Shown here: in pieces, positions 43,284-62,721 of the stretch
Position numbering within the stretch: position 1 is the first letter of the stretch
Layout: the number at the start of each line of letters is the position of its first letter
Source: an uncultured Gammaproteobacteria bacterium
GTDB lineage: Bacteria; Pseudomonadota; Gammaproteobacteria; Ga0077554; Ga007554
Assembly (NCBI GenBank): GCA_947085925.1
Contig: CAMTYI010000004.1
Coordinates: 2,891 to 66,890 of the forward strand
Direction of reading: 5' to 3'
Length of the DNA: 64,000 nucleotides
Notes under the pieces: generated by a model
Told to the model about the DNA's origin: nothing
The model's input: only the letters and a program-made list of their open reading frames with translations
Databases searched by the model: none
Translations under genes and position numbers: made by a program

Positions 43284-43284
43284 T

Positions 43285-43337: not shown

Positions 43338-43490
43338 AAACATCAACAGGATCAGGCCGTTTTTAAGATGTGGTTTTGAGCATCGTTGTGATTATCGTAA
43401 CATGATGTTTTTGAAAGTTTTTGTAAATATATACAAAGAGTTACAGGGCATAATAACTATAATAATAATTTTAAATATTCAGGTAATTTT

Positions 43491-44591
43491 ATGAAACTCA
43501 CGATACAGCGCGAAAACTTGTTGAAACCGCTTCAATTGGTCTGTGGTGTTGTGGAGCGCAAGCAGACTTTGCCTATTCTATCCAACGTTCTGCTCAAGGC
43601 CGGAAGGGAGGGGCTGTCTCTCACGGCGACAGACCTGGAAATCGAGATGATGGCGCATACCCAATTCGATGGTTCCGAGGCTGGCGAAACTACCTTGCCT
43701 GCGCGTAAGTTTCTGGATATCTGCCGTGCCTTGCCAGATCAGGCCCAAGTGGAGCTGACGGTAGAAGGTGAACGTACCGTAATCCGTTCCGGCAAGAGCC
43801 GCTTTACCCTGTCTGCACTGCCTGCCGCTGAATTTCCGAATATCGGTTCGTTCAATGAAGTGATCAGCTTTTCCGTTGCACAGAATATCCTGAAAAATCT
43901 CATTGATCGGACAGGCTTTGCGATGGCGCAACAGGATATTCGCTACTATCTGAATGGGTTGCTACTGGAGATTGCCGATAGCAGGCTGCGCACGGTTGCT
44001 ACCGATGGACATCGGCTCGCGCTGTGTGATGCCGAAGTTGATATTAGAGTACCTGAAATCCAACAAATCATTATCCCCCGCAAAGGGATACAAGAGCTGT
44101 CACGGTTGCTTGAGGATTCCGACCGGATGGTTCAGGTTCAACTTGGCGCAAACCATATCCAGCTTTCAACACCTGAAATAAGTTTTACCTCCAAGCTGAT
44201 CGATGGACGCTTTCCTGACTATCAGCGTGTTGTGCCGCAAGGTGGCGACAAACTTGTTATCAGTGACAAGGAAACACTCAAACAGGCGCTGGTACGCGCT
44301 TCGATTCTTTCCAATGAGAAACACCGTAGCGTGCGCTTCCAGTTGGCGAAAGATAGTCTACGCATCTTTGCTCACAACCCGGAGCAGGAGGAAGCGGAGG
44401 AAGAAGTCACTGTCGACTATCAGGGTGATACCCTGGAAATAGGCTTTAACGTAGGCTATGTGATAGATGCGCTTTCTGCTGTTACTGGAACGCAGGTGCA
44501 ACTGGTGCTTTCAGATGCCAATAGCTGTTGTTTGATACAGGGCGTCGGCATGGAGCATTGCAAGTATGTTGTGATGCCGATGCGGCTTTAA
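43491..44591 (+). CDS. dnaN: DNA polymerase III beta sliding clamp
   Basis: Full-length DnaN pattern (MKLTIQRENLLKPLQLV...). Confidence 0.95.
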   Translation: MKLTIQRENLLKPLQLVCGVVERKQTLPILSNVLLKAGREGLSLTATDLEIEMMAHTQFDGSEAGETTLPARKFLDICRALPDQAQVELTVEGERTVIRSGKSRFTLSALPAAEFPNIGSFNEVISFSVAQNILKNLIDRTGFAMAQQDIRYYLNGLLLEIADSRLRTVATDGHRLALCDAEVDIRVPEIQQIIIPRKGIQELSRLLEDSDRMVQVQLGANHIQLSTPEISFTSKLIDGRFPDYQRVVPQGGDKLVISDKETLKQALVRASILSNEKHRSVRFQLAKDSLRIFAHNPEQEEAEEEVTVDYQGDTLEIGFNVGYVIDALSAVTGTQVQLVLSDANSCCLIQGVGMEHCKYVVMPMRL

Positions 44592-44649
44592 TGCCGGGAG
44601 AATGGTTGTTTGCAGCTTAGAGCATTCAGGCTAAATTACCCTTAAATCT

Positions 44650-44800
44650 AAAAACTCAGTTATCCACGAAATTCACGAAAAAACACGAAAATATTCAGGT
44701 ATATACCCTATTTTATTTACCACATCGCCATCCGGTGAATTGCTGAAGCGGCCTATGTTTTTGCTTTATTTCGTGAGTTTCGTGTTTTTCGTGGATAAAA
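44650..44800. repeat. palindromic CACGAAA-heptad element, copy B (between dnaN and recF)
   Basis: Left arm TTATCCACGAAATTCACGAAAAAACACGAAAAT and right arm ATTTCGTGAGTTTCGTGTTTTTCGTGGATAA. Arms match copy A (14711-14831) in inverted orientation. The termini resemble DnaA boxes (TTATCCACG). Confidence 0.6.
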
Positions 44801-44817
44801 AGAGGTTTCAAGGTTAA

Positions 44818-45900
44818 ATGAGCCTGGCCTCCCTTTATGTCAAGAATGTCCGGAATCTTGCCGAGACCCATATCGAACCTGCGCCGTGCCTGAATATTTT
44901 TCACGGCGCGAATGCCAGCGGCAAAACAAGTCTTCTGGAGGCGGTTTACCTGCTGGGACGGGCACGCTCTTTTCGTTCCTCTTATATCCAGAATGTGATC
45001 AGCAAGGGCACGGACAGTTTTACTGTGGTTGGTCAGGTCAACGTTGGTGCTGATCAGCGTATCCCATTGGGTATTGAATATGCGGCGGAAAAGATGCGTA
45101 TGCGTGCGGCGGGGCAAACGCTGGAGCGCACCTCTGATCTCGTCACTCATCTGCCACTTCTTTTAATCAATCCTGATAGCCACAAAATATTAACCCTGGG
45201 TCCCCGGCAGCGTCGCCGCTTTATGGATTGGGGTGTGTTCCACGTGGAACATACCTTTATGCCCATCTGGACACGCTATTGTCGCGCTATTAAACAAAGG
45301 AATGCGGCGCTGCGCTGTTCTGGCCGCTCTATGCCGGAAGATGTGTGGAGCCTCGAATTACAGGAAAGCGCAGGCCGAATAGATTTGCTCAGACGTGAAT
45401 ACCTGCGGGATTATCTGCCGTTGTTTGTTGGGTTTGTCGAAAAGCTGCTGCCTCTTGAGGGCGTGTCATTGCGTTATTTGCGTGGTTGGGCGCAGGATAC
45501 CGAATATCGTGAGGTTCTGGCACGCTCGCTGGAAAAAGATCGTTCGCTAGGCCATACCAGCAGGGGGCCACACCGCGCTGATGTCATGATAGAGGTTGCG
45601 GGCAAACCTGCGCAGGAATACACATCAGGGGGGCAGCAAAAATTACTGATATGCGCAATGTATCTGGCACAGGCCGCGCTTCTAAAAGCCCGCGCACAAC
45701 GCCAGTGCATTATTTTGGTCGATGACCTGCCCGCTGAGCTTGATACGCAACACCGTAGAAAATTAATAGATCTGCTCTGCGGACTTGATGCACAGATAAT
45801 GGTAACGACCACGGATAGAGGATTGATCCATGTGCCGGAAATGGTTGAGCGGAAGATGTTCCACGTGGAACACGGGGTGGTAACGGAGCAGGCTTTTTGA
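44818..45900 (+). CDS. recF: DNA replication and repair protein RecF
   Basis: Walker A GANASGKTS and the SMC-like signature. Confidence 0.95.
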   Translation: MSLASLYVKNVRNLAETHIEPAPCLNIFHGANASGKTSLLEAVYLLGRARSFRSSYIQNVISKGTDSFTVVGQVNVGADQRIPLGIEYAAEKMRMRAAGQTLERTSDLVTHLPLLLINPDSHKILTLGPRQRRRFMDWGVFHVEHTFMPIWTRYCRAIKQRNAALRCSGRSMPEDVWSLELQESAGRIDLLRREYLRDYLPLFVGFVEKLLPLEGVSLRYLRGWAQDTEYREVLARSLEKDRSLGHTSRGPHRADVMIEVAGKPAQEYTSGGQQKLLICAMYLAQAALLKARAQRQCIILVDDLPAELDTQHRRKLIDLLCGLDAQIMVTTTDRGLIHVPEMVERKMFHVEHGVVTEQAF

Positions 45901-45918
45901 CAGGATTCCGCACGGTAA

Positions 45919-48393
<2,475 letters not shown>

Positions 48394-48455: not shown

Positions 48456-49598
48456 TTAAAGCAGTGCTGGCAATTCCTTGACCAGCGCATTTTTTTCACT
48501 CACCGCTACACCCGTCAGGGCAAAGCCGCGCAGCTTGTTTTCAGCATCAAAAAATAGCGCGCGCACGCCGGCTTCCAATACCTCCACCTTCCATTCGCCC
48601 ATAACACCTGGCGGCGGCGGGCAAACGACCACGGGATGTGCTGGTGTTTTCACAACCACTGGCATGGGTGGATAGCTGACCGGGGTAGGCTCACCCGCCA
48701 GGGTTTTCGCCAAAGCGCGCGCGGCGTTCATCAGCGGCATGACGTAGAACAGCACCAAGCCTTCTACCTCGGCGCAATCACCCATGGCATAAACATCGGG
48801 CGCGCGGGTGGCAAGGAAGCGGTCCACCGCAATACCCTGTACGGTGTGTATGCCCGCAGCATTGGCCAGTGTGGTACGCGGACGCAGGCCCACGCAGGAC
48901 AACACCACATCTGCCTCGATGCCTGAGCCATCAGAGAGTGTAAGGCGGTAGCCTTGGGCGGCACGGTCTACCGCCGTAACGGCCTTGTCGATGTGCCAGT
49001 GAACCCCGATATTTGTCAGACCTTCCTGCAATGCGTGCCCAGCCGCTTCGGGTAGCAAGCGATTGAGTGGTGCGTTGCCAGTGCTGATGACATCCACAGC
49101 GATACCGGCGCTGCGCAGGTCGTTGGCGAACTCACAGCCGATCAACCCGGCACCGATGATGGCGACGCGTTTGGCATCGGTAATAACCGCACGAAAACGC
49201 GAGTAATCGCCCAGGTCATTCACCGAGATCACAGCATCAGCGGCATCGCCCTTTAATGGGGGCTTGATCACATCGGCACCCAGCGCAAGCACGAGCTTGG
49301 CATATTCCAGTTCCTGACCATCCACGGAAATAGTATGACGTGCTGTGTCGATAGCGGTTACCCGGCTATGTGTCTGGATCACCGCGTTCAATTGGGTTGC
49401 CATTTGTGTGGCGTCAGCCGTGGCTAACTGATCCGGCGTCCGGCCGCTGCTCAAGGCATTGGAAAGCATAGGCTTGGAATAAAACCGTCCGTCATCCGCC
49501 GTGATGATCCGCAATGGCGTGTCTTTGTCGAGTTTGCGGAACTCGCGGGCCAGGGTGTAACCCGAAAGACCGCTGCCGACGATGATGATGGGGTTCAT
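48456..49598 (-). CDS. rubredoxin-NAD(+) reductase (FAD-dependent pyridine nucleotide-disulfide oxidoreductase)
   Basis: N-terminal FAD fold IIIVGSGLSGYTLAREFRKLD..PLRIITADDGRFYSKPMLS resembles the Pseudomonas rubredoxin reductase N-terminus. Confidence 0.8.
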   Translation of the reverse strand: MNPIIIVGSGLSGYTLAREFRKLDKDTPLRIITADDGRFYSKPMLSNALSSGRTPDQLATADATQMATQLNAVIQTHSRVTAIDTARHTISVDGQELEYAKLVLALGADVIKPPLKGDAADAVISVNDLGDYSRFRAVITDAKRVAIIGAGLIGCEFANDLRSAGIAVDVISTGNAPLNRLLPEAAGHALQEGLTNIGVHWHIDKAVTAVDRAAQGYRLTLSDGSGIEADVVLSCVGLRPRTTLANAAGIHTVQGIAVDRFLATRAPDVYAMGDCAEVEGLVLFYVMPLMNAARALAKTLAGEPTPVSYPPMPVVVKTPAHPVVVCPPPPGVMGEWKVEVLEAGVRALFFDAENKLRGFALTGVAVSEKNALVKELPALL

Positions 49599-49849: not shown

Positions 49850-49883
49850 CTTTTTCCTCTTGAATCAGTATTAAATGAGCAAC

Positions 49884-50357
49884 TTAACTGCGCACCTTGG
49901 CGAGTGTTGCGCGATAGTGGTTGGCGTGGCGCTCTTCAACCTTGGTCAGGGCGGCAAACCGTTTGGCGGCTTTTTCCAGGGTTGTCTGAAAGCGTTGTGC
50001 ATGTTCAACGGACTCGGCGATTTGTTCGTCAAATTCGCGCACCGCTGCCTCGTTTTGCTCCTGCATTGCCAGGTGCCTGAACTTGGGGTACATCTCGGTG
50101 TACTCGTAGGTTTCTCCGGCAATCGCCATATCCAGGCAGCGCGCGGCATCCATCCGGTCCTTGGGGTAAAGCAAATCAAGGTGGCCGAAGGCATGTTGTA
50201 CCTCCTGCGCCGCCGTATCTTCAAAGACCTTGGCAGTTTCTTCGTCCCCCTGCGCACGGCAGATTTTGGCGAAGTACATGTATTTGATGTATGCCATCGA
50301 CTCGCCGGCGAAAGCTGCTTCAAGATTCTGGATGGTTACCGAACCGTCGTGTTTCAT
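49884..50357 (-). CDS. rubrerythrin-like diiron (ferritin-like) protein without rubredoxin domain
   Basis: EAAFAGESMAYIKYMYFA and E..H diiron ligand pattern. ATG at 50357 has an ACAGGAG SD. The track start at 50378 is a TTG. Confidence 0.75.
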   Translation of the reverse strand: MKHDGSVTIQNLEAAFAGESMAYIKYMYFAKICRAQGDEETAKVFEDTAAQEVQHAFGHLDLLYPKDRMDAARCLDMAIAGETYEYTEMYPKFRHLAMQEQNEAAVREFDEQIAESVEHAQRFQTTLEKAAKRFAALTKVEERHANHYRATLAKVRS

Positions 50358-50476
50358 GATTTTCTCCTGTGTATCCAAGGGTGTGACATCTCATTTTTGA
50401 TCGTGGTCGTAACCACGTGAGATGCATGTTAGATGCACAAGAGAGATTAATCTAATTGATCGTTATTATTAAATTG

Positions 50477-50491
50477 ATAGTTTATAGCTAT
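50477..50491. promoter_or_regulatory. OxyR-type half-site pair ATAG-N7-CTAT upstream of rubrerythrin gene
   Basis: ATAGtttatagCTAT lies about 120 bp upstream of the rubrerythrin start, next to the oxyR stop, in an AT-rich promoter-like region. Confidence 0.3.
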
Positions 50492-51411
50492 AACTTGACA
50501 GGGTGTATGCCAGGCACATCCGAGGAAAGAATAGCCTGCCGGATGGCTTGTATCGCTTCGGGCCGGGTGAAGCTCTTGCGCCAGGCCAGCGCTACCCTGC
50601 GGGTGGGGACGGGTTTGACAAAGGGGCGTACGGCAAGCAGCTTGTCATGCCGGGTGCTTACCGAAGTGCCCGGCAACACTGTGATCCCCGCGCCGGAGGC
50701 CACCATCAGACGGATAGTCTCCAGTGAGCTGCCCTCCAGAGTTTTTTGCAGGCTGCCGGGCATGGCGCTGCCACGATGGCAGGCTGGACAAGCGCTCAGC
50801 ACCTGGTCACGGAAGCAGTGCCCCGCCCCCAGCAGTAATACCGTCTCATCGGCGATGTCCGCCGGTTTGAGGGCGGTTTTTTTCGCCAGCGGGTGCCCGG
50901 CGGGCAACACCACCACAAAATCTTCGTCGTACAGCGGCTGGGTGACAATGCCGGGCGCCTCAAAGGGCAGCGAGAGTATGATCACATCCAGTTCGCCCTG
51001 CTGCAGGCGCCCAGCCAGTGCGCCGGTGTAATTTTCCTCGATCAGCAGCGGCATGTGTGGCGCGCGCTTATGCAACACCGGAATCAAGTGGGGCAACAAG
51101 TAAGGCGCAATGGTGTAGATCGCACCCAGGCGAATTGGGACGGAGAGCGGATCTTCCCCCTGTTTGGCAAGCTCTTTGAGCGTGCGCGCCTCGTCCAGCA
51201 CGCGTATCGCCTGCGCGATGATCCGCTCTCCTGTCGGCGTCACCGTTATTTCATTCGGGCCGCGCTCGAACAGCACCACACCCAACTCATCCTCCAGCTT
51301 GCGCACCGCCACGCTTAATGTAGGCTGGCTGACAAAGCACGCCTCCGCCGCGCGCCCAAAATGGCGCTCACGGGCAACGGCAACGATGTAGCGGAGTTCG
51401 GTGAGGGTCAT
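50488..51411 (-). CDS. oxyR: LysR-family regulator, OxyR-like
   Basis: N-terminal HTH MTLTELRYIVAVARERHFGRAAEACFVSQPTLSVAVRKLEDELGV is close to the OxyR consensus. Two Cys are present in the effector domain. Confidence 0.75.
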   Translation of the reverse strand: MTLTELRYIVAVARERHFGRAAEACFVSQPTLSVAVRKLEDELGVVLFERGPNEITVTPTGERIIAQAIRVLDEARTLKELAKQGEDPLSVPIRLGAIYTIAPYLLPHLIPVLHKRAPHMPLLIEENYTGALAGRLQQGELDVIILSLPFEAPGIVTQPLYDEDFVVVLPAGHPLAKKTALKPADIADETVLLLGAGHCFRDQVLSACPACHRGSAMPGSLQKTLEGSSLETIRLMVASGAGITVLPGTSVSTRHDKLLAVRPFVKPVPTRRVALAWRKSFTRPEAIQAIRQAILSSDVPGIHPVKL

Positions 51412-51619
51412 GATTGATAAAGTTTAGTGTCGCCTCGAAGTGGAGAGGTTTTTTGCATCGAAAACGGTTCAGATCCGATGGCCGCTGACCGATAAATGTC
51501 CACACAGCAGTATTTTTTTACATGATCCGGTGTGCTGGAGACGGTAGTATCATGATCGATTATATTGTTGAGGTAGCCGCCGCCTCGTTCGCCTTTTTAT
51601 CTTATCATGCACTTTTAAT

Positions 51620-52141
51620 TTGGGGGGATCGATGTCCGGTGTGAATCCTTATCAAGCGCCTCAGGCCAGGGTAGACGACGTTGCGGAACAGGGGCAGGAC
51701 TTTGTGTTGGCTGAGCGATCAACGCGTTTGGGAGCGACCCTTCTGGATGTCGCCATGTTGATGGTGCCTGGCATAGCTGCCGCAGTGTCGCTGCCGTCGC
51801 TCATGGCTGGGCAGGGGGTATCTGCCAGCCAGTCGATGAGCTGGGTGATGGTCGCTGGGGGGATAGTAATGCTTGGTTTATTCATCACGAACTTGATATT
51901 CTGGCATCGCTACGGACAAACCATTGGCAAGCGCATACTCAAGATAAAAATTGTCCGCTCGGATGGAAGCCGCGCGGGACTGCGGCGCATCTTTTTTATG
52001 CGCTACATGGTGCCTGGGTTGGTAGGCAACATACCTGTTGCTGGTGTGGTGTTTAGTTTGGTGAATGTCTTGATGATCTTCCGTGAATCACGCAAATGCC
52101 TGCACGATAATATCGCCGATACCCTCGTTATAAAAGCCTGA
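51620..52141 (+). CDS. RDD-family membrane protein
   Basis: NPYQAP N-terminal motif and an RDD-like TM core. Stop overlaps the next start (TGATG). Confidence 0.7.
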   Translation: MGGSMSGVNPYQAPQARVDDVAEQGQDFVLAERSTRLGATLLDVAMLMVPGIAAAVSLPSLMAGQGVSASQSMSWVMVAGGIVMLGLFITNLIFWHRYGQTIGKRILKIKIVRSDGSRAGLRRIFFMRYMVPGLVGNIPVAGVVFSLVNVLMIFRESRKCLHDNIADTLVIKA

Positions 52142-52824
52142 TGCTCGATACCCGCCGCGCTATCGAGACACCGGAAGGCGTTACCCTGGACTTGCGTGTT
52201 GCCGGTCCGGTGGTGCGCTTTTTCGCGTGGAGTATTGATTTTCTGATTCGCGGTGTTGTGTATATTATTCTGTCGATGACCCTGGTCAATATGATGGGGC
52301 GCTTTGGTCAGGGTATCTTCCTGGTTGCCGTTTTTATGCTCGAATGGTTTTACCCAGTCCTGTTTGAAGTGTTCAGCAGAGGTGCGACGCCGGGCAAGCG
52401 TGTGATGGGCATTACCGTCCTGCAAGACAATGGTGTGCCGGTGGGTTGGTCGGCCTCCGTCACGCGCAATTTGCTGCGTTTTGCCGACTTCCTGCCTGTG
52501 TTGTACGGATTTGGTGTGGCCTCCATGCTCATTAGCCGTGACTTCAAGCGCTTGGGTGATCTGGCAGCCGGCACCATCGTGGTGTATCGCCCCCTTCCCG
52601 ATAAAATCGGTGAGCTACCCTCTGAGTTGCCCGTACCCCCGCGTTATCCCCTGTCGCTGGATCAGCAGCGTGCCGTCATCGCGTTTGCCGAGCGGGCGAC
52701 CACCCTAACGCCAGAGCGCGCGAGGGAGCTGGCCAATATTGTTTCGAGCCTGACGCGTGCCACTGAAGATAGGGGGGTGAAGAGGCTATTTGCTATGGCG
52801 AATTGGCTGGTGGGCAGGCGATGA
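52141..52824 (+). CDS. RDD-family membrane protein (second copy)
   Basis: RDD-type motif pattern (RFFAWSIDFLI...GATPGKRVMGI...DLAAGTIVV). Confidence 0.7.
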   Translation: MLDTRRAIETPEGVTLDLRVAGPVVRFFAWSIDFLIRGVVYIILSMTLVNMMGRFGQGIFLVAVFMLEWFYPVLFEVFSRGATPGKRVMGITVLQDNGVPVGWSASVTRNLLRFADFLPVLYGFGVASMLISRDFKRLGDLAAGTIVVYRPLPDKIGELPSELPVPPRYPLSLDQQRAVIAFAERATTLTPERARELANIVSSLTRATEDRGVKRLFAMANWLVGRR

Positions 52825-53843
52825 GTCCGCAGGAGTTTGTCGCGCGCCATGAGCCACAATGGGTACGCCTGGAGCAGTTGCTGAACCGTTTGACAAAGGC
52901 GCCGCGCAACAAAGCCCAAGGTGATAATGCACAGCCCTCCATTTATTCCACCGGTGAAAATAGTTCACCTCACGCTGCGGAACTTCCCGAATTATATCGT
53001 CAGGCGTGTCACCATCTTGCGTTGGCGCGCGACCGTCACTATCCCACCGTGGTGGTTGAACGGCTGAATCAACTGGTGCTAAATGGGCATCAGGTGTTTT
53101 ATAGCGCACGTGGTGGATTGTGGACGGACATTGTACGTTTTGCCGCAGCCGATTTTCCTGCCTTGATACGCCAGCATGCCAGACTTTTCTGGCTGGCCGC
53201 GCTGCTTTTTTATTTGCCCTTGCTGGTGATGGGCGTGGCAGTCTATTTCGCGCCTGAAATGGCCTATACGCTGATCAGCCCCACGGATGCCACAGCCATG
53301 GAGGCGATGTATCGTCCCACGGCTGAGCACATTGGCAGGCCGCGAGACTCAGGCGGTGACTTTCTCATGTTCGGTCACTATATCCGCAATAACATTGGCA
53401 TTGGTTTTCAAACCTTTGCCAGTGGCATTGTGTTTGGTCTGGGCAGTTTGTTTTACCTCCTCTTCAATGGATTGTATATAGGAACAGTAGCCGGGCATCT
53501 TACCCACGTTGGCTATACCGGCACTTTTTATCCCTTTGTGGTAGGACACGGCGCCTTTGAGCTTAATGCCATCGTGCTAAGTGGCATGGCAGGGCTAAAG
53601 CTGGGTCTGGCATTGCTTGCCCCTGGGCAGATGACGCGTAAGCAGGCGCTCTTGGCAGCGGCCAGGATCAGCGTGCGCATTATTTATGGCGTTGTTGCCA
53701 TGCTGCTTATTGCTGCATTTCTCGAAGCATTCTGGTCATCAAGTGCGATAATTCCCAGCCAGGTAAAATATATTGTCGGGGGTGTTTTCTGGGCGTTGGT
53801 AATTTTTTACTTTGTAGTGATGGGAAGACGGCGTGCAAATTAA
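52803..53843 (+). CDS. stage II sporulation protein M-like (DUF95) integral membrane protein
   Basis: Six-TM core with the NNIGIGFQTFASGIVFGLGSLFYLLFNGLYIG pattern typical of DUF95. Overlaps the upstream gene by 22 nt. Confidence 0.6.
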   Translation: MAGGQAMSPQEFVARHEPQWVRLEQLLNRLTKAPRNKAQGDNAQPSIYSTGENSSPHAAELPELYRQACHHLALARDRHYPTVVVERLNQLVLNGHQVFYSARGGLWTDIVRFAAADFPALIRQHARLFWLAALLFYLPLLVMGVAVYFAPEMAYTLISPTDATAMEAMYRPTAEHIGRPRDSGGDFLMFGHYIRNNIGIGFQTFASGIVFGLGSLFYLLFNGLYIGTVAGHLTHVGYTGTFYPFVVGHGAFELNAIVLSGMAGLKLGLALLAPGQMTRKQALLAAARISVRIIYGVVAMLLIAAFLEAFWSSSAIIPSQVKYIVGGVFWALVIFYFVVMGRRRAN

Positions 53844-54600
53844 CCAGCTTACCCTGGCGCTACGGCCCCGCAACGCTTATGAGGCCATTGATTTAGGTTT
53901 TGTTGTGGCACGCGCCTACTGGAAACCGTTGTACATGATCTGGTTTTCTCTGCTGTTGCCCTTTTTTGCATTGCTGCAAATATTGGAGACCTACAACGTC
54001 TGGGTTGTAACCTTGGTGATATGGTGGTTAAAGCCGCTGTATGACCGCATAGCCCTGTTTGTTTATAGCCGTGCAGTATTCGGTGAGCTTCCTACGGTAC
54101 GTGAGACCTGGCGCGCCGTGCCGGGCTTTTTCCGCGCGGGACTTATTTCGGCATTAACCTACCGTCGTTTTGATCTTGCGCGGTCATTCACTCTTCCGGT
54201 GTTTCAGCTTGAGGGATTGCGGGGCCAGGCAAGGCGCGCGCGGCAAAATATATTGAATAAAAATATACGCCCCAAGGCGGTCTGGCTGGCCATCGCATGC
54301 GTGCATCTGGAAAGCGTGCTGATGTTATCGTTGGTGGCCTTTTTATATCTCATGACACCCCATTCGGCCCAAGGGCAAATCGGAGAATTTTTCTTTAGCA
54401 ATAACGGCCCTTTATGGTTTGGGTTGTTGACCAACGCCATTTATTTTATAGCGGTGAGCATCATCGAACCTTTTTATGTGGCGGCAGGTTTTGCGTTGTA
54501 TTTGAACCGGCGCACACAGCTCGAAGGATGGGATATCGAGTTGGCATTCCACGGTATCGCCGAGCGCGCCAGGCTTTTGGAAAAGAGCCAAGCCACATGA
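53833..54600 (+). CDS. hypothetical polytopic membrane protein
   Basis: Multiple hydrophobic segments. Overlaps both neighbours (11 nt and 4 nt). Confidence 0.45.
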   Translation: MQINQLTLALRPRNAYEAIDLGFVVARAYWKPLYMIWFSLLLPFFALLQILETYNVWVVTLVIWWLKPLYDRIALFVYSRAVFGELPTVRETWRAVPGFFRAGLISALTYRRFDLARSFTLPVFQLEGLRGQARRARQNILNKNIRPKAVWLAIACVHLESVLMLSLVAFLYLMTPHSAQGQIGEFFFSNNGPLWFGLLTNAIYFIAVSIIEPFYVAAGFALYLNRRTQLEGWDIELAFHGIAERARLLEKSQAT

Positions 54601-55343
54601 GAAATTTTGATCCGCGCTGGTTCCGCATGGTGTTGTGTTCACTGGTAGCCTTTTGCTTTTTGGTGGCACAACCCATTCGGGCAGAAGATCGACAACCGAC
54701 GTCGGCAGAAATCAAAAAGACCATCACCGAAATCCTTGGAAAGCCCGAATTCAAAACGCAGGAGATGCAGAAAAAATTGCGCTACATGGGCAAGAAGAAC
54801 GAGCGGGATCAAAGCAGTGACTCATGGGTGCAGGGTCTCGCGGAGTTTATTGGGTATCTCGCTTCATTTCTCGAATTTATATTATGGTTGTGTGTTTTCA
54901 TTATTATAGTTTTGGTGATTGTTTATAGAGATCGCTGGTTGAGGCTGTTTCCATCAGCGTCAGCATCACTCTTTTCAAAATCCACCGTCCCCAACGTGTT
55001 GTTTGGCCTGGATGTCCGCCAGGAATCCTTGCCCGCCGATATTCCGGGCGAGGCGAGGTTTTTGTGGTCACGCGGTAAAACCACGGAAGCCATGAGCCTG
55101 TTATACAGAGGCGCACTGGCAAGGCTGATTATTCGTCATGGTGTTGCCATTTCTGGCAGTGCCACTGAGGGCGAATGCCTGCAACGTGTTAGCCAGACCG
55201 CACACACTGAGCTTGCACAGTATTTTGGCATGTTGACCCACGCCTGGCAGATAACGGTGTATGCGCACCGCCTCCCCGAAGACGGCGCAGTGCGGGCGCT
55301 TTGCGAGGGATTCAGTCATCACTTTGAGACAACTGCATCATGA
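54597..55343 (+). CDS. DUF4129-like membrane-anchored protein
   Basis: Start reassigned to ATG 54597 (MRNFDPRWFRMVLCSLVAFCFLVAQPIRA signal/anchor) within the longer track ORF. C-terminal LLYRGALARL...TEGECL region. Confidence 0.5.
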   Translation: MRNFDPRWFRMVLCSLVAFCFLVAQPIRAEDRQPTSAEIKKTITEILGKPEFKTQEMQKKLRYMGKKNERDQSSDSWVQGLAEFIGYLASFLEFILWLCVFIIIVLVIVYRDRWLRLFPSASASLFSKSTVPNVLFGLDVRQESLPADIPGEARFLWSRGKTTEAMSLLYRGALARLIIRHGVAISGSATEGECLQRVSQTAHTELAQYFGMLTHAWQITVYAHRLPEDGAVRALCEGFSHHFETTAS

Positions 55344-56485
55344 ATGCACGCACGCTGATCACGGGCGCGGTTGTCATTGGCCTGTCGGTGTGGGCGGGAT
55401 TCTGGTTTTACAATAATTTTGGTTGGGTAGATGAAAAGGCTGAGATTGGTTATCAAGGGGAGGCAAAAGAAAATTCATTTCTGGCAGCGCAGCGGCTGAT
55501 CGTCGCCTTGGGAGGTACAGCCCAGTCTGTGCGCGGCATGCCCAATATTCCACCGCAGGGCACCACGCTGGTAATGCCAACATTGCGGTATAGCCTGGGG
55601 CCAAAGTCTATCGGGGCGTTGCTGAGCTGGGTCGCTACGGGCAACCATCTCGTAGTGGCTACTCATGGTGAGTATTACACCGAGGATAAGAAAGATATTT
55701 TGCTCGATGCCTTGGGCATTTCCGAAATTAACGCCAGGGCCAAAGGTGACTACAAAGTAAAACATATCAACGCAGAAATATATAAGGTTCCCACCGTTGA
55801 TATTTCCGGCAACGGTGAGTTATTTCAGGTTGATTTTGATGCCTTGCACAGGCTGACAAGCAAACAGGCGGCACTCTGGAAGATCGAGGATAGCGCCGGC
55901 GCCTATCTTGTGCGGGTGAAGCACGGTAATGGCAGGGTTACCGTAATGAGCGATTATGGTTTTATGGAGAATTATGCTATCGGAAAATACGACCACGCCG
56001 CGTTCATGGCCCGCGTTCTTGATGTGCGTCCGGGTGGTGCAGTATGGCTGGTCTACAGTGAAGACATGCCGTCTCTCCCGCAATGGTTGGCCCTACATGC
56101 CTGGCAGGTATTAATCAGTGGTGCGCTGTTGCTGATGGTGTGGCTATGGGCGGCGAGCCGCCGCTTCGGTGTGTTGCTGCCAGAACCGGTCATGGAACGG
56201 CGCAGTTTGCTGGAACACATTACAGCAGGGGGGCACTTTCTATGGCGGCACGGCGGAGAGTCTGCATTGCTGATGCGCGTGCGCGCATCTGTGAAGCAGG
56301 CAATTTTCCTGCGTTACCCGCGATGGGCGAGCATGTCTGATGAACAGCTCTATGTTGAGTTGTCCCTGTTATGTGGGCTGAGTCCGCAACAGATTCAAAA
56401 AGCGCTTGATCTTCCTGTGTACGGAAATCAGCACGAGTTTACTAGCGTAATAAAAAACATGGAAATAATAAGGAGGAAGCTGTGA
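55340..56485 (+). CDS. DUF4350-like protein with N-terminal TM anchor
   Basis: TM anchor followed by a soluble domain. Start ATGA-overlaps the previous stop. Confidence 0.45.
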   Translation: MNARTLITGAVVIGLSVWAGFWFYNNFGWVDEKAEIGYQGEAKENSFLAAQRLIVALGGTAQSVRGMPNIPPQGTTLVMPTLRYSLGPKSIGALLSWVATGNHLVVATHGEYYTEDKKDILLDALGISEINARAKGDYKVKHINAEIYKVPTVDISGNGELFQVDFDALHRLTSKQAALWKIEDSAGAYLVRVKHGNGRVTVMSDYGFMENYAIGKYDHAAFMARVLDVRPGGAVWLVYSEDMPSLPQWLALHAWQVLISGALLLMVWLWAASRRFGVLLPEPVMERRSLLEHITAGGHFLWRHGGESALLMRVRASVKQAIFLRYPRWASMSDEQLYVELSLLCGLSPQQIQKALDLPVYGNQHEFTSVIKNMEIIRRKL

Positions 56486-57477
56486 CTGAGCCGCTCATGA
56501 GTGCTGGCGTTCCGCAGGAAAAAGTAGATAAAGCCCATACAATTATCCAGCGCATGCGTACCGAAATTGGCAAGGCGATAGTCGGCCAGGTTGAAATGGT
56601 TGATCAAGTGCTCATCGCGCTGTTCGCGGCAGGCCATGTATTGATCGAAGGCGTGCCGGGACTGGGGAAAACATTGTTGGTGCGGGCGATTGCCAAAACC
56701 TTTGAAGGTAACTTTTCGCGCGTCCAGTTTACGCCGGACTTAATGCCCTCGGATATTACCGGCCATGCAATGTATAACCTTGAAAACGGACAATTCCATG
56801 TGCGTAAGGGCCCGGTGTTTACCAATTTACTGCTGGCGGATGAAATAAATCGCGCCCCGGCCAAAACCCAGGCGGCCTTGCTCGAAGTGATGCAGGAAAA
56901 TCAGGTGACCATTGAGGGGCAAAGTTATATGTTGGCCCCACCTTTTATGACGCTCGCCACTCAAAACCCCATCGAGCAAGAGGGCACATATCCCTTGCCG
57001 GAGGCGCAGCTTGATCGCTTTTTGTTGAAAGTTTTAATGGAGTATCCCTCGCAGCAAGAAGAAAGGCTTATGTTGAATCAAGTAACATCCGGGCAGGTGG
57101 GTGACACGCTTAATGTTGATCAAGTGTCGGCGGTGGTCAATCCCGCGACGATTCAAACTATTCAGCGCCTTGTTTCCATGTTGCGTGTAGATGAGCGGGT
57201 ACGCGATTACGCGGTCAGCATAGTGCGTGCTACGCGCGAATGGCCTGGTATTTCCGTAGGCGCCGGACCAAGAGGCGGCATTGCTTTAATTCGTGCCGCG
57301 CGTGCTGCGGCGCTGTTAAAGGGACGAGATTTTGTAACGCCGGATGATGTGAAAGCCATAGCCCCGGCTGCTTTGAGGCACCGTTTGATATTGGAGCCTG
57401 ATCTGGAAATAGAAGGCCATGACACGGATGATGTATTAAAGGCCTTGCTCGATAAGGTTGACTCCCCGCGGACATGA
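56482..57477 (+). CDS. MoxR-family AAA+ ATPase
   Basis: VGQVEMVDQVLIALFAAGHVLIEGVPGLGKT Walker A, Walker B LLADEINRA, and C-terminal AAA lid. Confidence 0.9.
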   Translation: MTEPLMSAGVPQEKVDKAHTIIQRMRTEIGKAIVGQVEMVDQVLIALFAAGHVLIEGVPGLGKTLLVRAIAKTFEGNFSRVQFTPDLMPSDITGHAMYNLENGQFHVRKGPVFTNLLLADEINRAPAKTQAALLEVMQENQVTIEGQSYMLAPPFMTLATQNPIEQEGTYPLPEAQLDRFLLKVLMEYPSQQEERLMLNQVTSGQVGDTLNVDQVSAVVNPATIQTIQRLVSMLRVDERVRDYAVSIVRATREWPGISVGAGPRGGIALIRAARAAALLKGRDFVTPDDVKAIAPAALRHRLILEPDLEIEGHDTDDVLKALLDKVDSPRT

Positions 57478-58778
57478 AGCCCGCCAAAAACCTTTTCCTG
57501 TTGTTATGGCTATGGCTTGCCTTGGCAGTAGCCGCGTCCGTGTTTCCCGTGCTTTCAGTAGTGTGGCTGGTCATGGGCGCCGTGATTATGATCGTCGCCT
57601 TATTTGATGGCCGCACTGTTTTGCATATAAAACAGCTTTATGCCAGACGCCAGTTGCGCGGCTCCTTGCCCGTGAATGTATGGCGCACCATCAAAGTACG
57701 GATTGCCAACGCCTATAAAAAACCCGTTTCACTTACCCTTTATGACCACCATCCTACGCAGGCAGAAAGCCGCAAGCTACCCCAGGCGATGGTGATACAG
57801 CCCGATGGGTGGGGCGAAGCAAACTATCAGGTACGATTACTGCGGCGTGGCGACCAACGCTTCGGTGCGACAGAGGCCTTGTTGCTTTCACCCTTGAGAC
57901 TATGGCAGCGCAAAGTGATGCTGGGGGAGCCGCAAGCTGTGCGCGTCTATCCCGATTTCGCGGCGGTGGCAAAGTATGCCTTGCTGGCGACCGATCACCA
58001 ACTGAGCCAGATGGGCATACGCAAACGCAGGCGGCGCGGCATGGGACTGGAGTTTCATCAACTGCGTGAATACCGGGACGGCGACACTTTGCGTCAGGTG
58101 GACTGGAAGGCCACGTCCCGCATGAATAAATTGATCTCTCGCGAATATCAGGATGAGCGTGATCAACAGATCGTATTCCTTTTTGATGGAGGGCGCCGCA
58201 TGCTGGCCCAAGATGGCGCCCTTTCGCATTTTGATCACGCCCTGAATGCCATGCTTTTGCTGGCGCATGTCGCACTGCGCCAGGGCGATGCCGTAGGCAT
58301 GATGAGCTTTGCCGACGAAGCACGCTACTTGCACCCAAAAAAAGGAAGCGCCACCTTAAATCAACTTATGAATCGCCTGTATGACATGCAACCCATGTTA
58401 AAAACTCCAGACTATGTACTTGCGGTGACAGAATTGATGAAGAAACTCAGGAAACGTTCTCTAGTGGTGCTAGTGACCAATCTACGTGATGAAGACAGTG
58501 ATGAGCTAATGGTCGCGCTGAATTTGCTCAAGAAGCGTCACCTGGTGCTACTGGCGAGCCTGCGTGAAATGGTCATTGGTGATACCTTGAGGAAACCTGT
58601 GGACAATTTTAACGATGCCCTGACGCTCGCGGCCACGCATCACTACCTGGGCTCGCGTGAGAAAGCGTTTGAGCAGATAAAGCATGCCGGGGTTTTCTGT
58701 CTGGATGTCGAACCGGCAAAGCTGCCAGTGGCAATGGTGAACAGATATCTGGAAATCAAGCGCAGCGGTCGGTTGTGA
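57474..58778 (+). CDS. DUF58 (vWA-like) protein, MoxR partner
   Basis: Hallmark LEFHQLREYRDGDTLRQVDWKATSR motif and vWA-like core (VFLFDGGRRM). Confidence 0.85.
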   Translation: MKPAKNLFLLLWLWLALAVAASVFPVLSVVWLVMGAVIMIVALFDGRTVLHIKQLYARRQLRGSLPVNVWRTIKVRIANAYKKPVSLTLYDHHPTQAESRKLPQAMVIQPDGWGEANYQVRLLRRGDQRFGATEALLLSPLRLWQRKVMLGEPQAVRVYPDFAAVAKYALLATDHQLSQMGIRKRRRRGMGLEFHQLREYRDGDTLRQVDWKATSRMNKLISREYQDERDQQIVFLFDGGRRMLAQDGALSHFDHALNAMLLLAHVALRQGDAVGMMSFADEARYLHPKKGSATLNQLMNRLYDMQPMLKTPDYVLAVTELMKKLRKRSLVVLVTNLRDEDSDELMVALNLLKKRHLVLLASLREMVIGDTLRKPVDNFNDALTLAATHHYLGSREKAFEQIKHAGVFCLDVEPAKLPVAMVNRYLEIKRSGRL

Positions 58779-58955
58779 TTTTGGCTGCGGGCTGCTTGAG
58801 GAGTGGCGTATGTACAATGATGCAAGGTGATGCACATAGGTGAAACCAGTAGTGTCAGGAAATTTAGTTGAATAAATTCAGTTTGTTATCGTTTTTTTGC
58901 GTAGCCATTTGCATCTCCTATTTGTTGCTAACATGTATTTTTCGTTGGGTCGCGA

Positions 58956-58982
58956 GATAAAAATGATTGACAATCATTCTCA
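58956..58982. promoter_or_regulatory. Fur-box-like palindrome overlapping the -35 of a TTGACA-N18-TATAAAT promoter upstream of bfd
   Basis: GATAAAAATGATTGACAATCATTCTC with perfect inverted repeat AATGATTG-A-CAATCATT. -35 TTGACA at 58967-58972 and -10 TATAAAT at 58991-58997. Confidence 0.4.
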
Positions 58983-59028
58983 TTTGCATTTATAAATAGC
59001 ATCAGGTTGTTTCACTGGGTGATCCATA

Positions 59029-59223
59029 ATGTACATCTGCCTTTGCCATGCCGTAACCGAAAGCGATATCCAGAACGCCGTGGAGCAGGGCGCCTGCACC
59101 ATGCGCGAGCTGCGTAATGAATTAAAGGTGGCCACCCAGTGCGGACGCTGCGCCACCTGCGCACGAACCTGCCTTAACCAGGCGCTTGCCGAAATTGCGG
59201 GCGATCAGGTGATGGCCGCCTAA
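59029..59223 (+). CDS. bfd: bacterioferritin-associated ferredoxin (Bfd-like [2Fe-2S] protein)
   Basis: 64 aa with a C-x-C...C-x2-C pattern (ICLCHAV...CGRCATC). Confidence 0.8.
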   Translation: MYICLCHAVTESDIQNAVEQGACTMRELRNELKVATQCGRCATCARTCLNQALAEIAGDQVMAA

Positions 59224-59338
59224 CAAACGGTCAGGCTTGAGGGTTGTAGCGCGCAGTCGGCAACCCTGTAAGCTGCTGAAGAAATAGCCACGTATTCTTG
59301 GTGACAGTAACTAATCGAGCAGCGTTGAGATTTTATCC

Positions 59339-59941
59339 ATGCTCAAAATCGGCTTGACTGGCGGCATTGGTAGCGGCAAAACTACGGTGGCGGATTGCTT
59401 CGCTTTATTGGGTGTGCCGGTCATCGACGCCGACAAGATATCCCACGAATTGACTGCCCCCGGACAACCGGTGTTGCGGGACATCGTCAGCATCTTTGGG
59501 CCGGATATCCTGAAGGACGATGAACGGCTCGACCGGGCGCGGTTGCGCGCCGTCGTTTTCAATGATGCTATGCGCCGCAAGCAGCTTGAGGAAATCCTGC
59601 ACCCCCGGATCCGCGCCGAGATGCGTCGCCGCATCGCCGATATCGAAGCAAGCGCCACTCCTTATTGCATTCTCTCCATCCCTCTGCTGCTGGAAACCGG
59701 ACAAACCGATCTGGTGGACCGCGTTCTGGTGGTGGACGTCCCAGAAGACCTGCAATACCAGCGCGTGAGAGTACGCAATGGTCTGCCGGATGATGAAATC
59801 GCCGCAATCATCCATGCCCAACTCAGCAGGGAACAGCGCCTGGCGGCAGCGGACGATATCATTGCCAATGATGGCGGACTTGATGAGCTGCGCCAGCATG
59901 TCTTGGGGTTGCACCGGCGCTATCTAAAACATTTGGGTTAG
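59339..59941 (+). CDS. coaE: dephospho-CoA kinase
   Basis: IGLTGGIGSGKTTVA P-loop and the full-length CoaE pattern. Confidence 0.9.
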   Translation: MLKIGLTGGIGSGKTTVADCFALLGVPVIDADKISHELTAPGQPVLRDIVSIFGPDILKDDERLDRARLRAVVFNDAMRRKQLEEILHPRIRAEMRRRIADIEASATPYCILSIPLLLETGQTDLVDRVLVVDVPEDLQYQRVRVRNGLPDDEIAAIIHAQLSREQRLAAADDIIANDGGLDELRQHVLGLHRRYLKHLG

Positions 59942-61176: not shown

Positions 61177-62721
61177 ATGAATAACAAACGCATGTCTGCT
61201 ACGTCAATGGCAGGAGTTTTGGTTGTAAGTCTGACGGCTTGCGGAGGAGGTGGCGGCGACAACAATCCCGGTAATCTCCCCTCAAATACCGGCCCCAGCG
61301 AACCAACGGCCACCTATCTTTTCTACCAAGGCTCCCTTGGGGCGGTAGACCCCGCCAATCCCGCCAGCCCAATCTCTGTCGAAGCCGGCCCCGTCTCCGG
61401 CGCGGCGACGATTATCCATGGAACATATACGGCCGCCACGCACAGCGTGTCTGATCTTCATCCGCGCACTGCTGTCTATGCCAAGGATGGAAAATTGTGG
61501 AAAGTCAGCGCATTGAAAGGAAGTACCCCAGCGCCTGTCCGGCTTTCCAGTGAGGACGGGGCTAACACAGTGTGCGATCACACCACGGAAGTAGACTTTG
61601 TCAATCACAATAATGCCGCGTACATCTACTTGTTGCCGGGTTCGGACGCAACATGTTACACCGCCGATGACACGCGGAAAATGGTGAAAGTGGGAATGAG
61701 TGGCACGGAGGCGCCGATTGATCTCAAAACCAAACGGCTGGTAACTGCCATTATGAATTCACAAACCGGCGCCTTGCAGGGCTGGCTGGCAACCGACGGG
61801 GGCAGCCTCAGCCGCTACGACGCAAACTTTGGCAACGCTGTACAGATTGCTAATTTCAGTGTCGGTGCGGAGGAAGTGGCAACTTCGGGGGCCAATAGGG
61901 TGTTTTTGAAAATCGACGATAAATTGCGCATGTACAATGCCGAGACAGGCAACCTGTCCGCGCCGCTACATACCTATACATCGAGTACCGTCCCTGATTA
62001 TTCGGCACATGATATCAATCATGTCTTTTTTGTTGATGGAGCGACCATATACAAATTACCCACCGATGGCAGCGTAATGGCCACGCCGTTTACCACGGAA
62101 AGCGGGGCTGGATTTTACAAGCCCCCGGAGTTAACAGCCAATAGATTGGTTTACATATGGGCTAGTGCGGCGGACACCGCAAACCTCACCTATACCATGA
62201 AATCTTCACTGAAGAGCACCGGGGCAACTACAGTTCTCATTGATGCCACACCGAACATATTGACGTCGGCTGGCGCCAGCAAGGGCGGCTGGGTTTACTA
62301 CTACCGATATAACAGTGCAGGTACAGGTACTGCATATGCGGGGGCAATCAGAGAGGACAGTACTGGCAAAAACGAGAGACCGAATGCTTTCTGGGTTGGG
62401 TTCATATCGCCAGCTTCAGGGCACATAGATGAAACCACAGAACCTAAAAACGTGATTCTTGCGGAAGGTTATCAGCCAGCAACAGGCTTTGCCAACGGCT
62501 CACTCACATCCTTCGATGCGCTGACCAACACCCCGGTGGCTAATCTCGGAACCATTCCTTCGGGCGTACTTGACTTCCAATTTTACGGGCGTGGCGACTA
62601 CATATTAGGCAGGGGCTTCCTCGCTGCCGGAGGAAACGACATCTTCTTCATCAATACTGCAAAACAAAGCTCGCTCACGCGAGTAACAAACACATCTGCG
62701 ATCGACGAGTTCCCTATGTGA
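61177..62721 (+). CDS. hypothetical lipoprotein, 514 aa
   Basis: Signal peptide with lipobox LTAC, then a Gly-rich linker (CGGGGGDNNPG). Rich in T/S/G/A/N. No recognisable family. Confidence 0.55.
   Translation: MNNKRMSATSMAGVLVVSLTACGGGGGDNNPGNLPSNTGPSEPTATYLFYQGSLGAVDPANPASPISVEAGPVSGAATIIHGTYTAATHSVSDLHPRTAVYAKDGKLWKVSALKGSTPAPVRLSSEDGANTVCDHTTEVDFVNHNNAAYIYLLPGSDATCYTADDTRKMVKVGMSGTEAPIDLKTKRLVTAIMNSQTGALQGWLATDGGSLSRYDANFGNAVQIANFSVGAEEVATSGANRVFLKIDDKLRMYNAETGNLSAPLHTYTSSTVPDYSAHDINHVFFVDGATIYKLPTDGSVMATPFTTESGAGFYKPPELTANRLVYIWASAADTANLTYTMKSSLKSTGATTVLIDATPNILTSAGASKGGWVYYYRYNSAGTGTAYAGAIREDSTGKNERPNAFWVGFISPASGHIDETTEPKNVILAEGYQPATGFANGSLTSFDALTNTPVANLGTIPSGVLDFQFYGRGDYILGRGFLAAGGNDIFFINTAKQSSLTRVTNTSAIDEFPM

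Follow-up and report, generated by a model that had tools for sequence, protein, structure and literature searches.

A conserved eight-gene MoxR–DUF58 and membrane-protein cluster in an uncultured gammaproteobacterium, with a tentative model of an ATPase-remodeled inner-membrane complex

The stretch of DNA analyzed here (the window; 64,000 nucleotides (nt) of contig CAMTYI010000004.1 from an uncultured Gammaproteobacteria bacterium) contains eight consecutive plus-strand genes, g1 to g8, at positions 51620–58778. These genes encode a MoxR-family AAA+ ATPase, a DUF58 protein, and a set of membrane proteins that includes RDD, SpoIIM-like, DUF4129, and DUF4350 members. The cluster is a real and widespread "known unknown" belonging to a gene neighborhood that has been noticed before, and the window provides one more instance of it. 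There is good support for a single functional unit made up of the cluster proteins, given that the synteny survives rearrangement, that the gene overlaps are conserved, that g4 and g5 are fused in relatives, and that the genes are co-regulated in Mycobacterium chelonae. Two features stand out within this unit. Genes g4 and g5 are the two halves of a single protein, and g1 is a variable accessory instead of a core component. The genes and the presumed promoter region are as follows, with Pfam results for each protein.

51412–51631, plus strand: gap of about 220 nt without an open reading frame (ORF) between an OxyR-like gene and g1, the presumed promoter region
51620–52141, plus strand: g1, small RDD-family membrane protein in the variable leading slot (Pfam RDD, E = 4e-19)
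52141–52824, plus strand: g2, core RDD-family membrane protein extended by about 90 amino acids (aa) at the C-terminus (Pfam RDD, E = 1e-18)
52803–53843, plus strand: g3, SpoIIM-like polytopic membrane protein with an N-terminal DUF8413 (Pfam SpoIIM, E = 5e-32)
53833–54600, plus strand: g4, membrane protein with four transmembrane (TM) segments, N-terminal half of g4/g5 (no Pfam family)
54597–55343, plus strand: g5, two-TM protein with a C-terminal DUF4129, C-terminal half of g4/g5 (Pfam DUF4129)
55340–56485, plus strand: g6, N-terminal anchor, periplasmic DUF4350, TM segment, and cytoplasmic tail (Pfam DUF4350)
56482–57477, plus strand: g7, soluble MoxR-family AAA+ ATPase (Pfam AAA_3 and AAA_lid_2)
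57474–58778, plus strand: g8, DUF58 protein with an N-terminal TM hairpin and a vWA-like domain (Pfam DUF58)

The ORF list and a reading of the sequence place all eight genes where an initial annotation of this DNA had put them and confirm the junctions that it described. The ORFs comprise 173, 227, 346, 255, 248 (counted from ATG 54597 for g5), 381, 331, and 434 codons, respectively, and every junction is overlapping. The g1/g2 junction is TGATG, with an overlap of 1 nt. ATGA overlaps are found at g4/g5, g5/g6, and g7/g8, a GTGA overlap at g6/g7, and an 11-nt overlap at g3/g4 (53833–53843). The g2/g3 overlap given initially, 22 nt, corresponds to a TTG start of g3 at 52803 and becomes 4 nt (ATGA) with the start at ATG 52821. 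The latter, from which a 340-aa product is called on an identical public contig, is likely the start of g3. For g1, ATG 51632 is a more likely start than 51620, because a Shine-Dalgarno-like run (GGGGGGA) lies just 5' of ATG 51632. For g5, the start is at 54597 and not at the longer-ORF start at 54414. Taken together, the overlaps and the synteny suggest that the eight genes are co-transcribed as one stoichiometric operon. A scan for the sigma-70 consensus gave nothing convincing, and a promoter and terminator scan gave nothing above the shuffled background. Moreover, an Rfam search of positions 51300–59400 returned zero matches and no riboswitch.

The family labels of the initial annotation (RDD, RDD, DUF95, membrane protein, DUF4129, DUF4350, MoxR, and DUF58) agree with the Pfam scan, in which DUF95 is now named SpoIIM and g4 has no family. 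NCBIfam has no specific family for the seven non-ATPase proteins. The description of a MoxR gene packed together with a DUF58/vWA partner and membrane-protein genes on one strand is also supported. For the statement that five or six of the products are polytopic, hydropathy bears this out for g1 to g4 only, as g5, g6, and g8 have two TM segments each. What had been overlooked is the relationship between g4 and g5 as halves of one protein and the accessory status of g1.

To place the cluster among related genomes, a pattern scan based on the g4 alignment was used. Relatives were found in at least 586 species-representative genomes, and 80 loci were kept for comparison. Most of these genomes are from gamma- and betaproteobacteria, including Sulfuriferula, Parabeggiatoa, Thiomargarita, Thiothrix, Competibacteraceae, Accumulibacter, and many Pseudomonas/Stutzerimonas, and the Acidobacteriota are also represented (Thermoanaerobaculia and Holophagaceae). 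Every cluster protein has many full-length homologs. Among the 80 loci, the order g2–g3–g4/g5–g6–g7–g8 on one strand is kept in essentially all contigs that are long enough, and this order was confirmed by independent gene calls with Pfam labels as well as by a RefSeq-annotated Catenovulum replicon. Relocation of the RDD gene to a position downstream of the DUF58 gene is seen in two loci (L023 and L045), where it is still part of the cluster. The adjacency of g7 and g8 (MoxR–DUF58) is likewise kept in the related loci. The flanks vary by lineage, and no conserved flanking gene family or neighboring enzyme was found among the 80 loci.

The overlaps are conserved along with the gene order. An overlap of 4 nt is found at g2/g3 in 52 of 77 loci, at g5/g6 in 43 of 76, at g6/g7 in 44 of 68, and at g7/g8 in 29 of 57; the start codons for these counts were picked by a heuristic, such that the larger gaps may be errors. 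At g3/g4, 70 of 83 loci have an overlap of 11 or 14 nt, counted with the same start heuristic, and the 11 nt of the window are the commonest state in the family. This length is unusual compared with the customary 4-nt ATGA overlap, yet it is the dominant one here. Since the same junctions overlap across about 80 related loci, the overlap pattern is not due to chance.

Evidence for a physical association within the cluster comes from g4 and g5. A search with g4 found 420 homologs, and exhaustive searching with a profile yielded 2618 representatives after clustering at 50%. Of the 150 best g4 representatives, 130 have a length of 411–584 aa, compared with 255 aa in the window. The additional length is accounted for by g5 in the relatives that were inspected. 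A C-terminal DUF4129 scores over the Pfam cutoff in five of six long fused relatives scanned (the sixth scores under it), and residues 283–488 of the fused relative P0122 align to residues 38–245 of g5 with 32% identity (E = 3e-25). The g5 protein itself matches DUF4129 at 32.4 bits (cutoff 24.8). Furthermore, g4 and g5 are a single ORF in 67 of 77 loci. The closest relatives of g4, 255-aa proteins with 73–89% identity, are also split, and the split form occurs in Parabeggiatoa/Thiomargarita and in some betaproteobacterial loci as well. By these comparisons, g4 and g5 are the split form of one protein of about 500 aa. The fusion in relatives argues for a physical interaction of g4 and g5 and is direct evidence for their action as one polypeptide unit.

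The N-terminal half, g4, belongs to a family that has no name. No Pfam match was found for 36 family members even at E <= 10. A DUF975-like family encoded upstream was tried as a candidate for g4 and rejected (6% probability in a profile–profile comparison), and the same kind of comparison could not detect the g4 family in the positional equivalents from Prevotella and Nonomuraea. Because these Pfam and profile comparisons failed, the g4 family is kept apart from known families. The AlphaFold2 (AF2) model of g4 is confident and all-helical (predicted local distance difference test score (pLDDT) of 86.5) and has no significant fold match among PDB structures. Three charged motifs are invariant in the family, namely WWLKPLYDR, RSFxLPVWQLEG, and EPFYVAAGFALYLNRRTxLEGWDIE, and are mostly located at the predicted cytoplasmic edges of the membrane. 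Based on hydropathy and the positive-inside rule, g4 and g5 together are predicted to have six TM segments (four plus two) with DUF4129 in the cytoplasm.

The two RDD proteins score similarly against Pfam (PF06271; 69.7 bits for g1 and 68.1 bits for g2, cutoff 24.1) and share conserved Arg/Asp columns, and they differ in their distribution. The g2 protein, with three TM segments and a conserved tail of about 90 aa, has orthologs in 76 related loci, normally encoded directly 5' of the SpoIIM-like gene. The g1 protein, with three TM segments predicted by hydropathy and an N-terminal NPYQAP motif, has orthologs in only a handful of the related loci. Elsewhere, the leading slot on the same strand is occupied by a DUF805 gene (about 10 loci) or by a gene of the GPDPase_memb/DUF975/DUF7847/DUF7544 type (about 17 loci by eye, four of which were checked with Pfam), and many loci have no such small membrane-protein gene in this position. 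By these patterns, g1 is a variable accessory and not part of the core. Given that g1 orthologs are present in few loci and that other families take the slot, the conserved core consists of six or seven genes.

Several other observations concern the leading slot. In Candidatus Parabeggiatoa, the slot (L007:229-1311, plus strand) holds an RDD–type IV pilin fusion (Pfam Pilin, E = 2e-7). The DUF805 proteins in this position (L014:7766-8347, plus strand, and similar loci) have a pilin-like hydrophobic C-terminal helix (...AIAIPAYQTYVKRAQ...). In addition, an N-terminal NPYQAP(x)xxV motif is common to g1 (51632–51670) and the DUF805 proteins of L005, L011, L012, L014, and other loci. The presence of this tail on unrelated leading-slot proteins may reflect a common cytoplasmic recognition tail.

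The SpoIIM-like protein g3 has a strong match to SpoIIM (PF01944, formerly DUF95; 111.4 bits, cutoff 26.9). Its N-terminus is a cytoplasmic helical domain of about 120 aa, PF28475 (DUF8413; precomputed on an identical protein), which is followed by the SpoIIM TM bundle. Residues H243, E247, and E302 are conserved inside TM helices. The AF2 model of g3 is confident (pLDDT 89) and all-helical and gave no PDB fold match, and the PDB sequence and profile matches are non-significant (E = 0.68 or worse). In the DUF4350 protein g6 (50.8 bits, cutoff 30.4), an anchor at the N-terminus precedes the periplasmic DUF4350 (about 230 aa), which is followed by a second TM segment and then by roughly 100 aa of conserved cytoplasmic tail, with R275, G277, R288, and H293 as the conserved tail residues. 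The g6 orthologs have weak and mutually consistent matches to ABC_transp_aux (GldG-type), GLMA_2nd/GH42 flavodoxin-like, and IFT52 domains, as Makarova et al. had found with HHpred (PMC5898192). A PDB sequence search found nothing for g6, and the g6 profile found only weak IFT52/GH42 matches. The TM segment and tail of g6 also match DUF4381, a small protein of Bat-type MoxR operons, at E = 0.02–0.03 in three of 27 orthologs.

The ATPase g7 has strong matches to AAA_3 (214.9 bits, cutoff 27) and AAA_lid_2 (85.1 bits, cutoff 22.7), and its closest solved structure is 2r44 (E = 8e-81, residues 21–327). Its motifs are intact, including Walker A (GVPGLGKT, 57–64), Walker B (LLADE, 117–121), N162 (sensor/arginine set), R179, and R264, each of which reaches at least 90% conservation in an alignment of 67 sequences (66 orthologs plus the window protein). 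The protein is soluble by hydropathy. It also matches PF20030 (bpMoxR) at 50 bits, and its NCBIfam matches to chelatase ATPases are far under the cutoffs. The presumed partner g8 matches DUF58 (PF01882) at 97.2 bits (cutoff 23.4) and falls just short of VWA_2 (26.9 bits, cutoff 27). Where the DxSxS motif is expected from the alignment to the start of the VWA_2 profile, g8 has D238-G-G-R-R-M, and the 28 g8 orthologs inspected, those from Rhizobium and Prevotella among them, all have Dx[G/S]x[R/K/L/V]M at this metal ion-dependent adhesion site (MIDAS). The MIDAS motif of the vWA-like domain of g8 is degenerate, and the canonical form is lacking. Hydropathy and the flanking positive charges predict that the N-terminus of g8 forms a TM hairpin whose two ends are cytoplasmic, placing the DUF58/vWA-like domain on the cytoplasmic side together with MoxR. 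Searches with the g8 sequence and with a DUF58 profile found no PDB relative.

Beyond these relatives, a tblastn search of g3 against annotated replicons recovered the same Pfam set in other arrangements. In all, the gene set is present in at least four phyla, namely Pseudomonadota, Acidobacteriota, Actinomycetota, and Bacteroidota. On a chromid of Rhizobium leguminosarum, the order is DUF805, DUF4129 (a match under the Pfam cutoff, 20.3 bits), DUF4350, MoxR, DUF58, SpoIIM, and RDD. In Nonomuraea (Actinomycetota; L086), significant profile matches identify DUF4350–MoxR–DUF58 on one strand, with a SpoIIM-like gene on the opposite strand and an RDD gene beside it, which is the layout of M. tuberculosis Rv3691–Rv3695. 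In Prevotella (Bacteroidota), the genes are RDD, SpoIIM, two unassigned membrane proteins, DUF4350, MoxR, and DUF58. The initial annotation had stated that the arrangement is seen across phyla; this is the case for the gene set in these four phyla, whereas the exact order differs in Rhizobium, Nonomuraea, and Prevotella.

Comparison with known systems provides some indications of function. In M. tuberculosis, Rv3689–Rv3695 includes an RDD protein (Rv3695), a SpoIIM-like protein (Rv3694c), a DUF58 protein (Rv3693), MoxR2 (Rv3692), a DUF4350 protein (Rv3691), and further membrane proteins (PMC8191103). The orthologs of Rv3689–Rv3695 tabulated for M. chelonae have the same annotations, and their expression changes together (PMC8191103). 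However, the order and strands in these two species and Nonomuraea differ from those in the window, with the SpoIIM-like gene opposite to DUF4350–MoxR–DUF58, and the g4 family was undetectable in the Nonomuraea equivalent. Rv3694c and Rv3695 were recovered in co-immunoprecipitation (co-IP) with the divisome protein Rv0954 and PbpA in M. tuberculosis (PMC8093794). For archaea, Makarova et al. (2015) predicted that DUF4350, MoxR, and vWA proteins form a secretion or membrane-remodeling complex, which is a prediction only, and also noted that, in bacteria, genes for SpoIIM homologs adjoin those for vWA proteins and COG0714 (MoxR-type) ATPases (PMC5898192). Like the cluster, the archaeal arCOG01314 system combines a COG0714 ATPase and a vWA protein with an anchored DUF4350 protein, whose extracytoplasmic domain is GldG-like and which has a TM segment at its C-terminus. 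The archaeal partners are Ig-like/S-layer-type proteins (arCOG02884 and relatives), whereas those in the window are RDD, SpoIIM-like, and g4/DUF4129 proteins. Pfam found no Ig-like/S-layer-type domain in the eight proteins.

TgpA-type proteins, like g5, end in DUF4129. The MoxR–DUF58–TgpA operons (Pseudomonas aeruginosa PA2875–PA2873, Bacillus subtilis yeaC–yeaD–yebA, and the PFNA cluster of Bifidobacterium) resemble the cluster in combining MoxR and DUF58 with a polytopic membrane protein. In P. aeruginosa, these genes are co-transcribed, and TgpA is essential, has a periplasmic domain, and is linked by the authors to the cell wall (PMC3507681). In contrast, Pfam found no transglutaminase domain (PF01841) in the eight proteins; DUF4350 is the periplasmic element, and RDD and SpoIIM-like proteins are added. 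The Bat (Bacteroides aerotolerance) operons (MoxR–DUF58–DUF4381–BatA/BatB) share the MoxR and DUF58 pair, and their DUF4381 is weakly resembled by the TM segment and tail of g6. However, the cluster has no BatA/BatB vWA-TM, TPR, or SH3 proteins, and a BFD-like ORF and coaE are found downstream of g8.

In B. subtilis, SpoIIM belongs to the SpoIID/SpoIIM/SpoIIP engulfment complex, and SpoIIM has been summarized as a membrane scaffold that recruits extracytoplasmic enzymes (PMC5898192). Although g3 is in the same family (PF01944), neither the cluster nor its conserved flanks include SpoIID or SpoIIP, the relatives are non-sporulating proteobacteria, and g3 has DUF8413 in addition. Finally, RavA–ViaA, CbbQ–CbbO, NorQ–NorD, and CoxD–CoxE also have a MoxR ATPase gene directly beside that of a vWA-type adaptor. 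The working model for these pairs is adaptor-mediated remodeling of a target complex. They differ from the cluster in having an adjacent client enzyme and an intact MIDAS, whereas the MIDAS is degenerate here and the conserved partners are membrane proteins only.

Based on these comparisons, we tentatively propose that the cluster encodes one inner-membrane complex that is remodeled by MoxR and DUF58 and has a role in envelope or membrane remodeling or a secretion-like activity, a model that we consider possible and somewhat less than evenly probable. The complex would be hetero-oligomeric, with a membrane core composed of the RDD protein g2, the SpoIIM-like protein g3, the six-TM unit of g4 and g5, and the two-TM protein g6. 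Its sole sizeable periplasmic domain would be the GldG/IFT52-type DUF4350 of g6. Facing the cytoplasm would be several helical domains, i.e., DUF8413 of g3, the loops of g4, DUF4129 of g5, and the DUF4381-like tail of g6. The membrane-tethered DUF58 protein g8 may recruit a MoxR hexamer (g7) to these domains, such that ATP hydrolysis would drive the assembly, disassembly, or a conformational switch of the complex. The effect would be transmitted to the membrane bundle and the periplasmic GldG-type domain, and the output at the cytoplasmic membrane may be remodeling of the membrane or envelope or a secretion-like activity. In this complex, g1 would be an exchangeable accessory or client membrane subunit. 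We infer the physical complex and the use of DUF58 as an adaptor from the patterns above, and the cellular role is the weak part of the proposal.

Several points weigh against this model. As g3 and g4 are unlike any solved structure, their folds do not reveal how they might transport a substrate or catalyze a reaction. The degenerate MIDAS means that the usual contact between a vWA domain and its client cannot be assumed for g8. The resemblance of the g6 tail to DUF4381, being under the Pfam threshold, is a hint only. The co-IP with Rv0954 in M. tuberculosis is one mass-spectrometry list that contains many membrane proteins (PMC8093794). The system is present in diderms and monoderms, and the DUF4350/MoxR/vWA core is present in archaea, which makes it unlikely that the role is specific to peptidoglycan or the outer membrane. 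The literature retrieved consists of comparative genomics (PMC5898192), expression tables (PMC8191103 and PMC4694148), the co-IP list (PMC8093794), and the studies on the P. aeruginosa TgpA operon (PMC3507681) and an RDD antiporter (PMC5996927). A search of this searchable literature found no functional study of this type of cluster and no direct experiment on any member, which is in line with the earlier statement that it has no assigned function.

A bolder version of the model, which we consider rather unlikely, is that a MoxR motor is docked by the MIDAS-less DUF58 protein onto the DUF4129, DUF8413, and DUF4381-like domains and works through the SpoIIM-like, RDD, and g4 TM subunits on the GldG/IFT52-type domain. 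Such an arrangement would be an undescribed trans-membrane machine, found from proteobacteria to mycobacteria, and an AAA+-powered counterpart of the mechanotransmission by FtsEX, MacB, and GldFG.

Alternatively, the RDD proteins, perhaps with the SpoIIM-like protein, may be a cation/proton transport module that is gated or assembled by MoxR/DUF58 under ionic, pH, or osmotic stress. For the sole characterized RDD protein, from Halobacillus andaensis, Na+(Li+,K+)/H+ antiport with a requirement for Arg and Asp residues has been reported (PMC5996927). Both g1 and g2 clearly belong to the RDD family and have conserved Arg/Asp positions, and His/Glu residues are conserved in the TM helices of g3. 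However, a small antiporter needs no AAA+ motor, DUF58 adaptor, or large periplasmic GldG-like domain. Moreover, RDD is just one of six or seven conserved components, the RDD protein of the leading slot is freely swapped for unrelated DUF805 or DUF975-like proteins, and ion-homeostasis genes are not among the conserved neighbors. Such a transport module is unlikely. The suggestion of the initial annotation, a membrane-protein or metal-cofactor insertion system, is distinctly unlikely. In this reading, MoxR/DUF58 would act as a chaperone for a client encoded elsewhere, either by supplying an enzyme with its metal or cofactor or by inserting a membrane protein, and the membrane proteins of the cluster would serve as a scaffold. 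Characterized MoxR/vWA pairs such as CoxD/E, NorQ/D, CbbQ/O, and the Mg-chelatase relatives mature metalloenzymes or remodel enzymes, and g7 has weak NCBIfam matches to chelatase ATPase subunits. However, those matches fall far below the cutoffs, and the genes of cofactor-inserting MoxR systems adjoin those of the client enzyme, whereas no enzyme neighbor is conserved in the 80 loci, the conserved partners being the membrane proteins themselves. The metal-binding MIDAS is also degenerate in all 28 orthologs, with DxSxS missing from DUF58. This suggestion finds no evidence here.

The variable leading slot raises the possibility that the cluster functions in quality control of small polytopic membrane proteins, with the slot product as the client or specificity subunit and the MoxR core extracting, inserting, or turning over such proteins. 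This explanation would account for a slot that alternates among unrelated families of small membrane proteins while the core stays constant, for the overlap (translational coupling) of the slot gene with the core in the window, and for the NPYQAP-type tail of several occupants. Nevertheless, it is improbable, as the slot is empty of such a gene in many loci, the pattern fits an accessory subunit equally well, and MoxR proteins are not known to act as unfoldases or dislocases. Finally, an anti-phage or conflict system of the MoxR–vWA type is very improbable. MoxR–vWA modules do occur in conflict systems, and g7 matches bpMoxR as described above. However, PADLOC was negative, with generic AAA matches only (<= 26 bits), and Pfam found no beta-propeller or effector domain in the eight proteins. 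Furthermore, the order of the genes is stable in about 80 loci, which come from at least 586 matching species genomes and show none of the variability that is typical of defense islands, and the cluster in the window is at a core-chromosome site between gyrB and coaE/zapD, close to replication origin genes.

The flanks of the cluster in the window are housekeeping genes, with dnaA, dnaN, recF, and gyrB upstream and coaE and zapD downstream. The four upstream genes are consecutive on the plus strand (41922–48393), and GC content falls to about 0.49 across 42–46 kb. This row of genes indicates that the window spans the region of the chromosomal replication origin. Directly upstream of the cluster is a divergent gene for an OxyR-like LysR regulator (50488–51411, minus strand; NF008361 at 240 bits, under the 329-bit cutoff), next to which is a gene for a NorW-like NADH:flavorubredoxin reductase (48456–49598, minus strand). 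Control by OxyR was considered as a link to oxidative stress similar to that of the Bat operon and was rejected, since the adjacency is missing from the 80 related loci; any control by OxyR would be lineage-specific, given this lack of conservation. Just 3' of the cluster, an ORF of 64 aa (59029–59223, plus strand) encodes a BFD-like [2Fe-2S] ferredoxin (PF04324, E = 2e-10). An AT-rich, Fur-box-like sequence (...AAATGATTGACAATCATTCTCATTTGC...) is found 5' of it at about 58955–58995, and the ORF may be an iron-regulated bfd gene. Two putative ORFs, one of 514 aa (61177–62721, plus strand) and one of 181 aa (49875–50420, plus strand), have no Pfam or NCBIfam match. An antisense ORF of 194 aa inside g8 (57754–58338, minus strand), which is rich in Arg/Pro/Ala, is probably spurious, as such ORFs are common opposite to GC-rich genes.

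Compared with what was known of this neighborhood, the new elements are that g4/g5 is split and g4 represents an unnamed family, that g1 is an accessory, and that the DUF58 protein is MIDAS-less, together with the conserved overlaps and the topology map. The g4/g5 fusion names an interaction, and the topology map shows which domains are within the reach of MoxR. The g4 marker occurs in at least 586 species-level genomes, and the wider Pfam set extends to Pseudomonas/Stutzerimonas, Rhizobium, Prevotella, and M. tuberculosis. Tractable hosts that carry the system include Stutzerimonas stutzeri, R. leguminosarum, and M. smegmatis. If the cluster does encode a remodeling machine driven by an AAA+ ATPase, roles would be assigned to several large families for which no function, or no general one, is known (RDD, non-sporulation SpoIIM, DUF4129, DUF4350, DUF58, and the unnamed g4 family), and an additional principle of energy coupling for work at the cytoplasmic membrane would be established.

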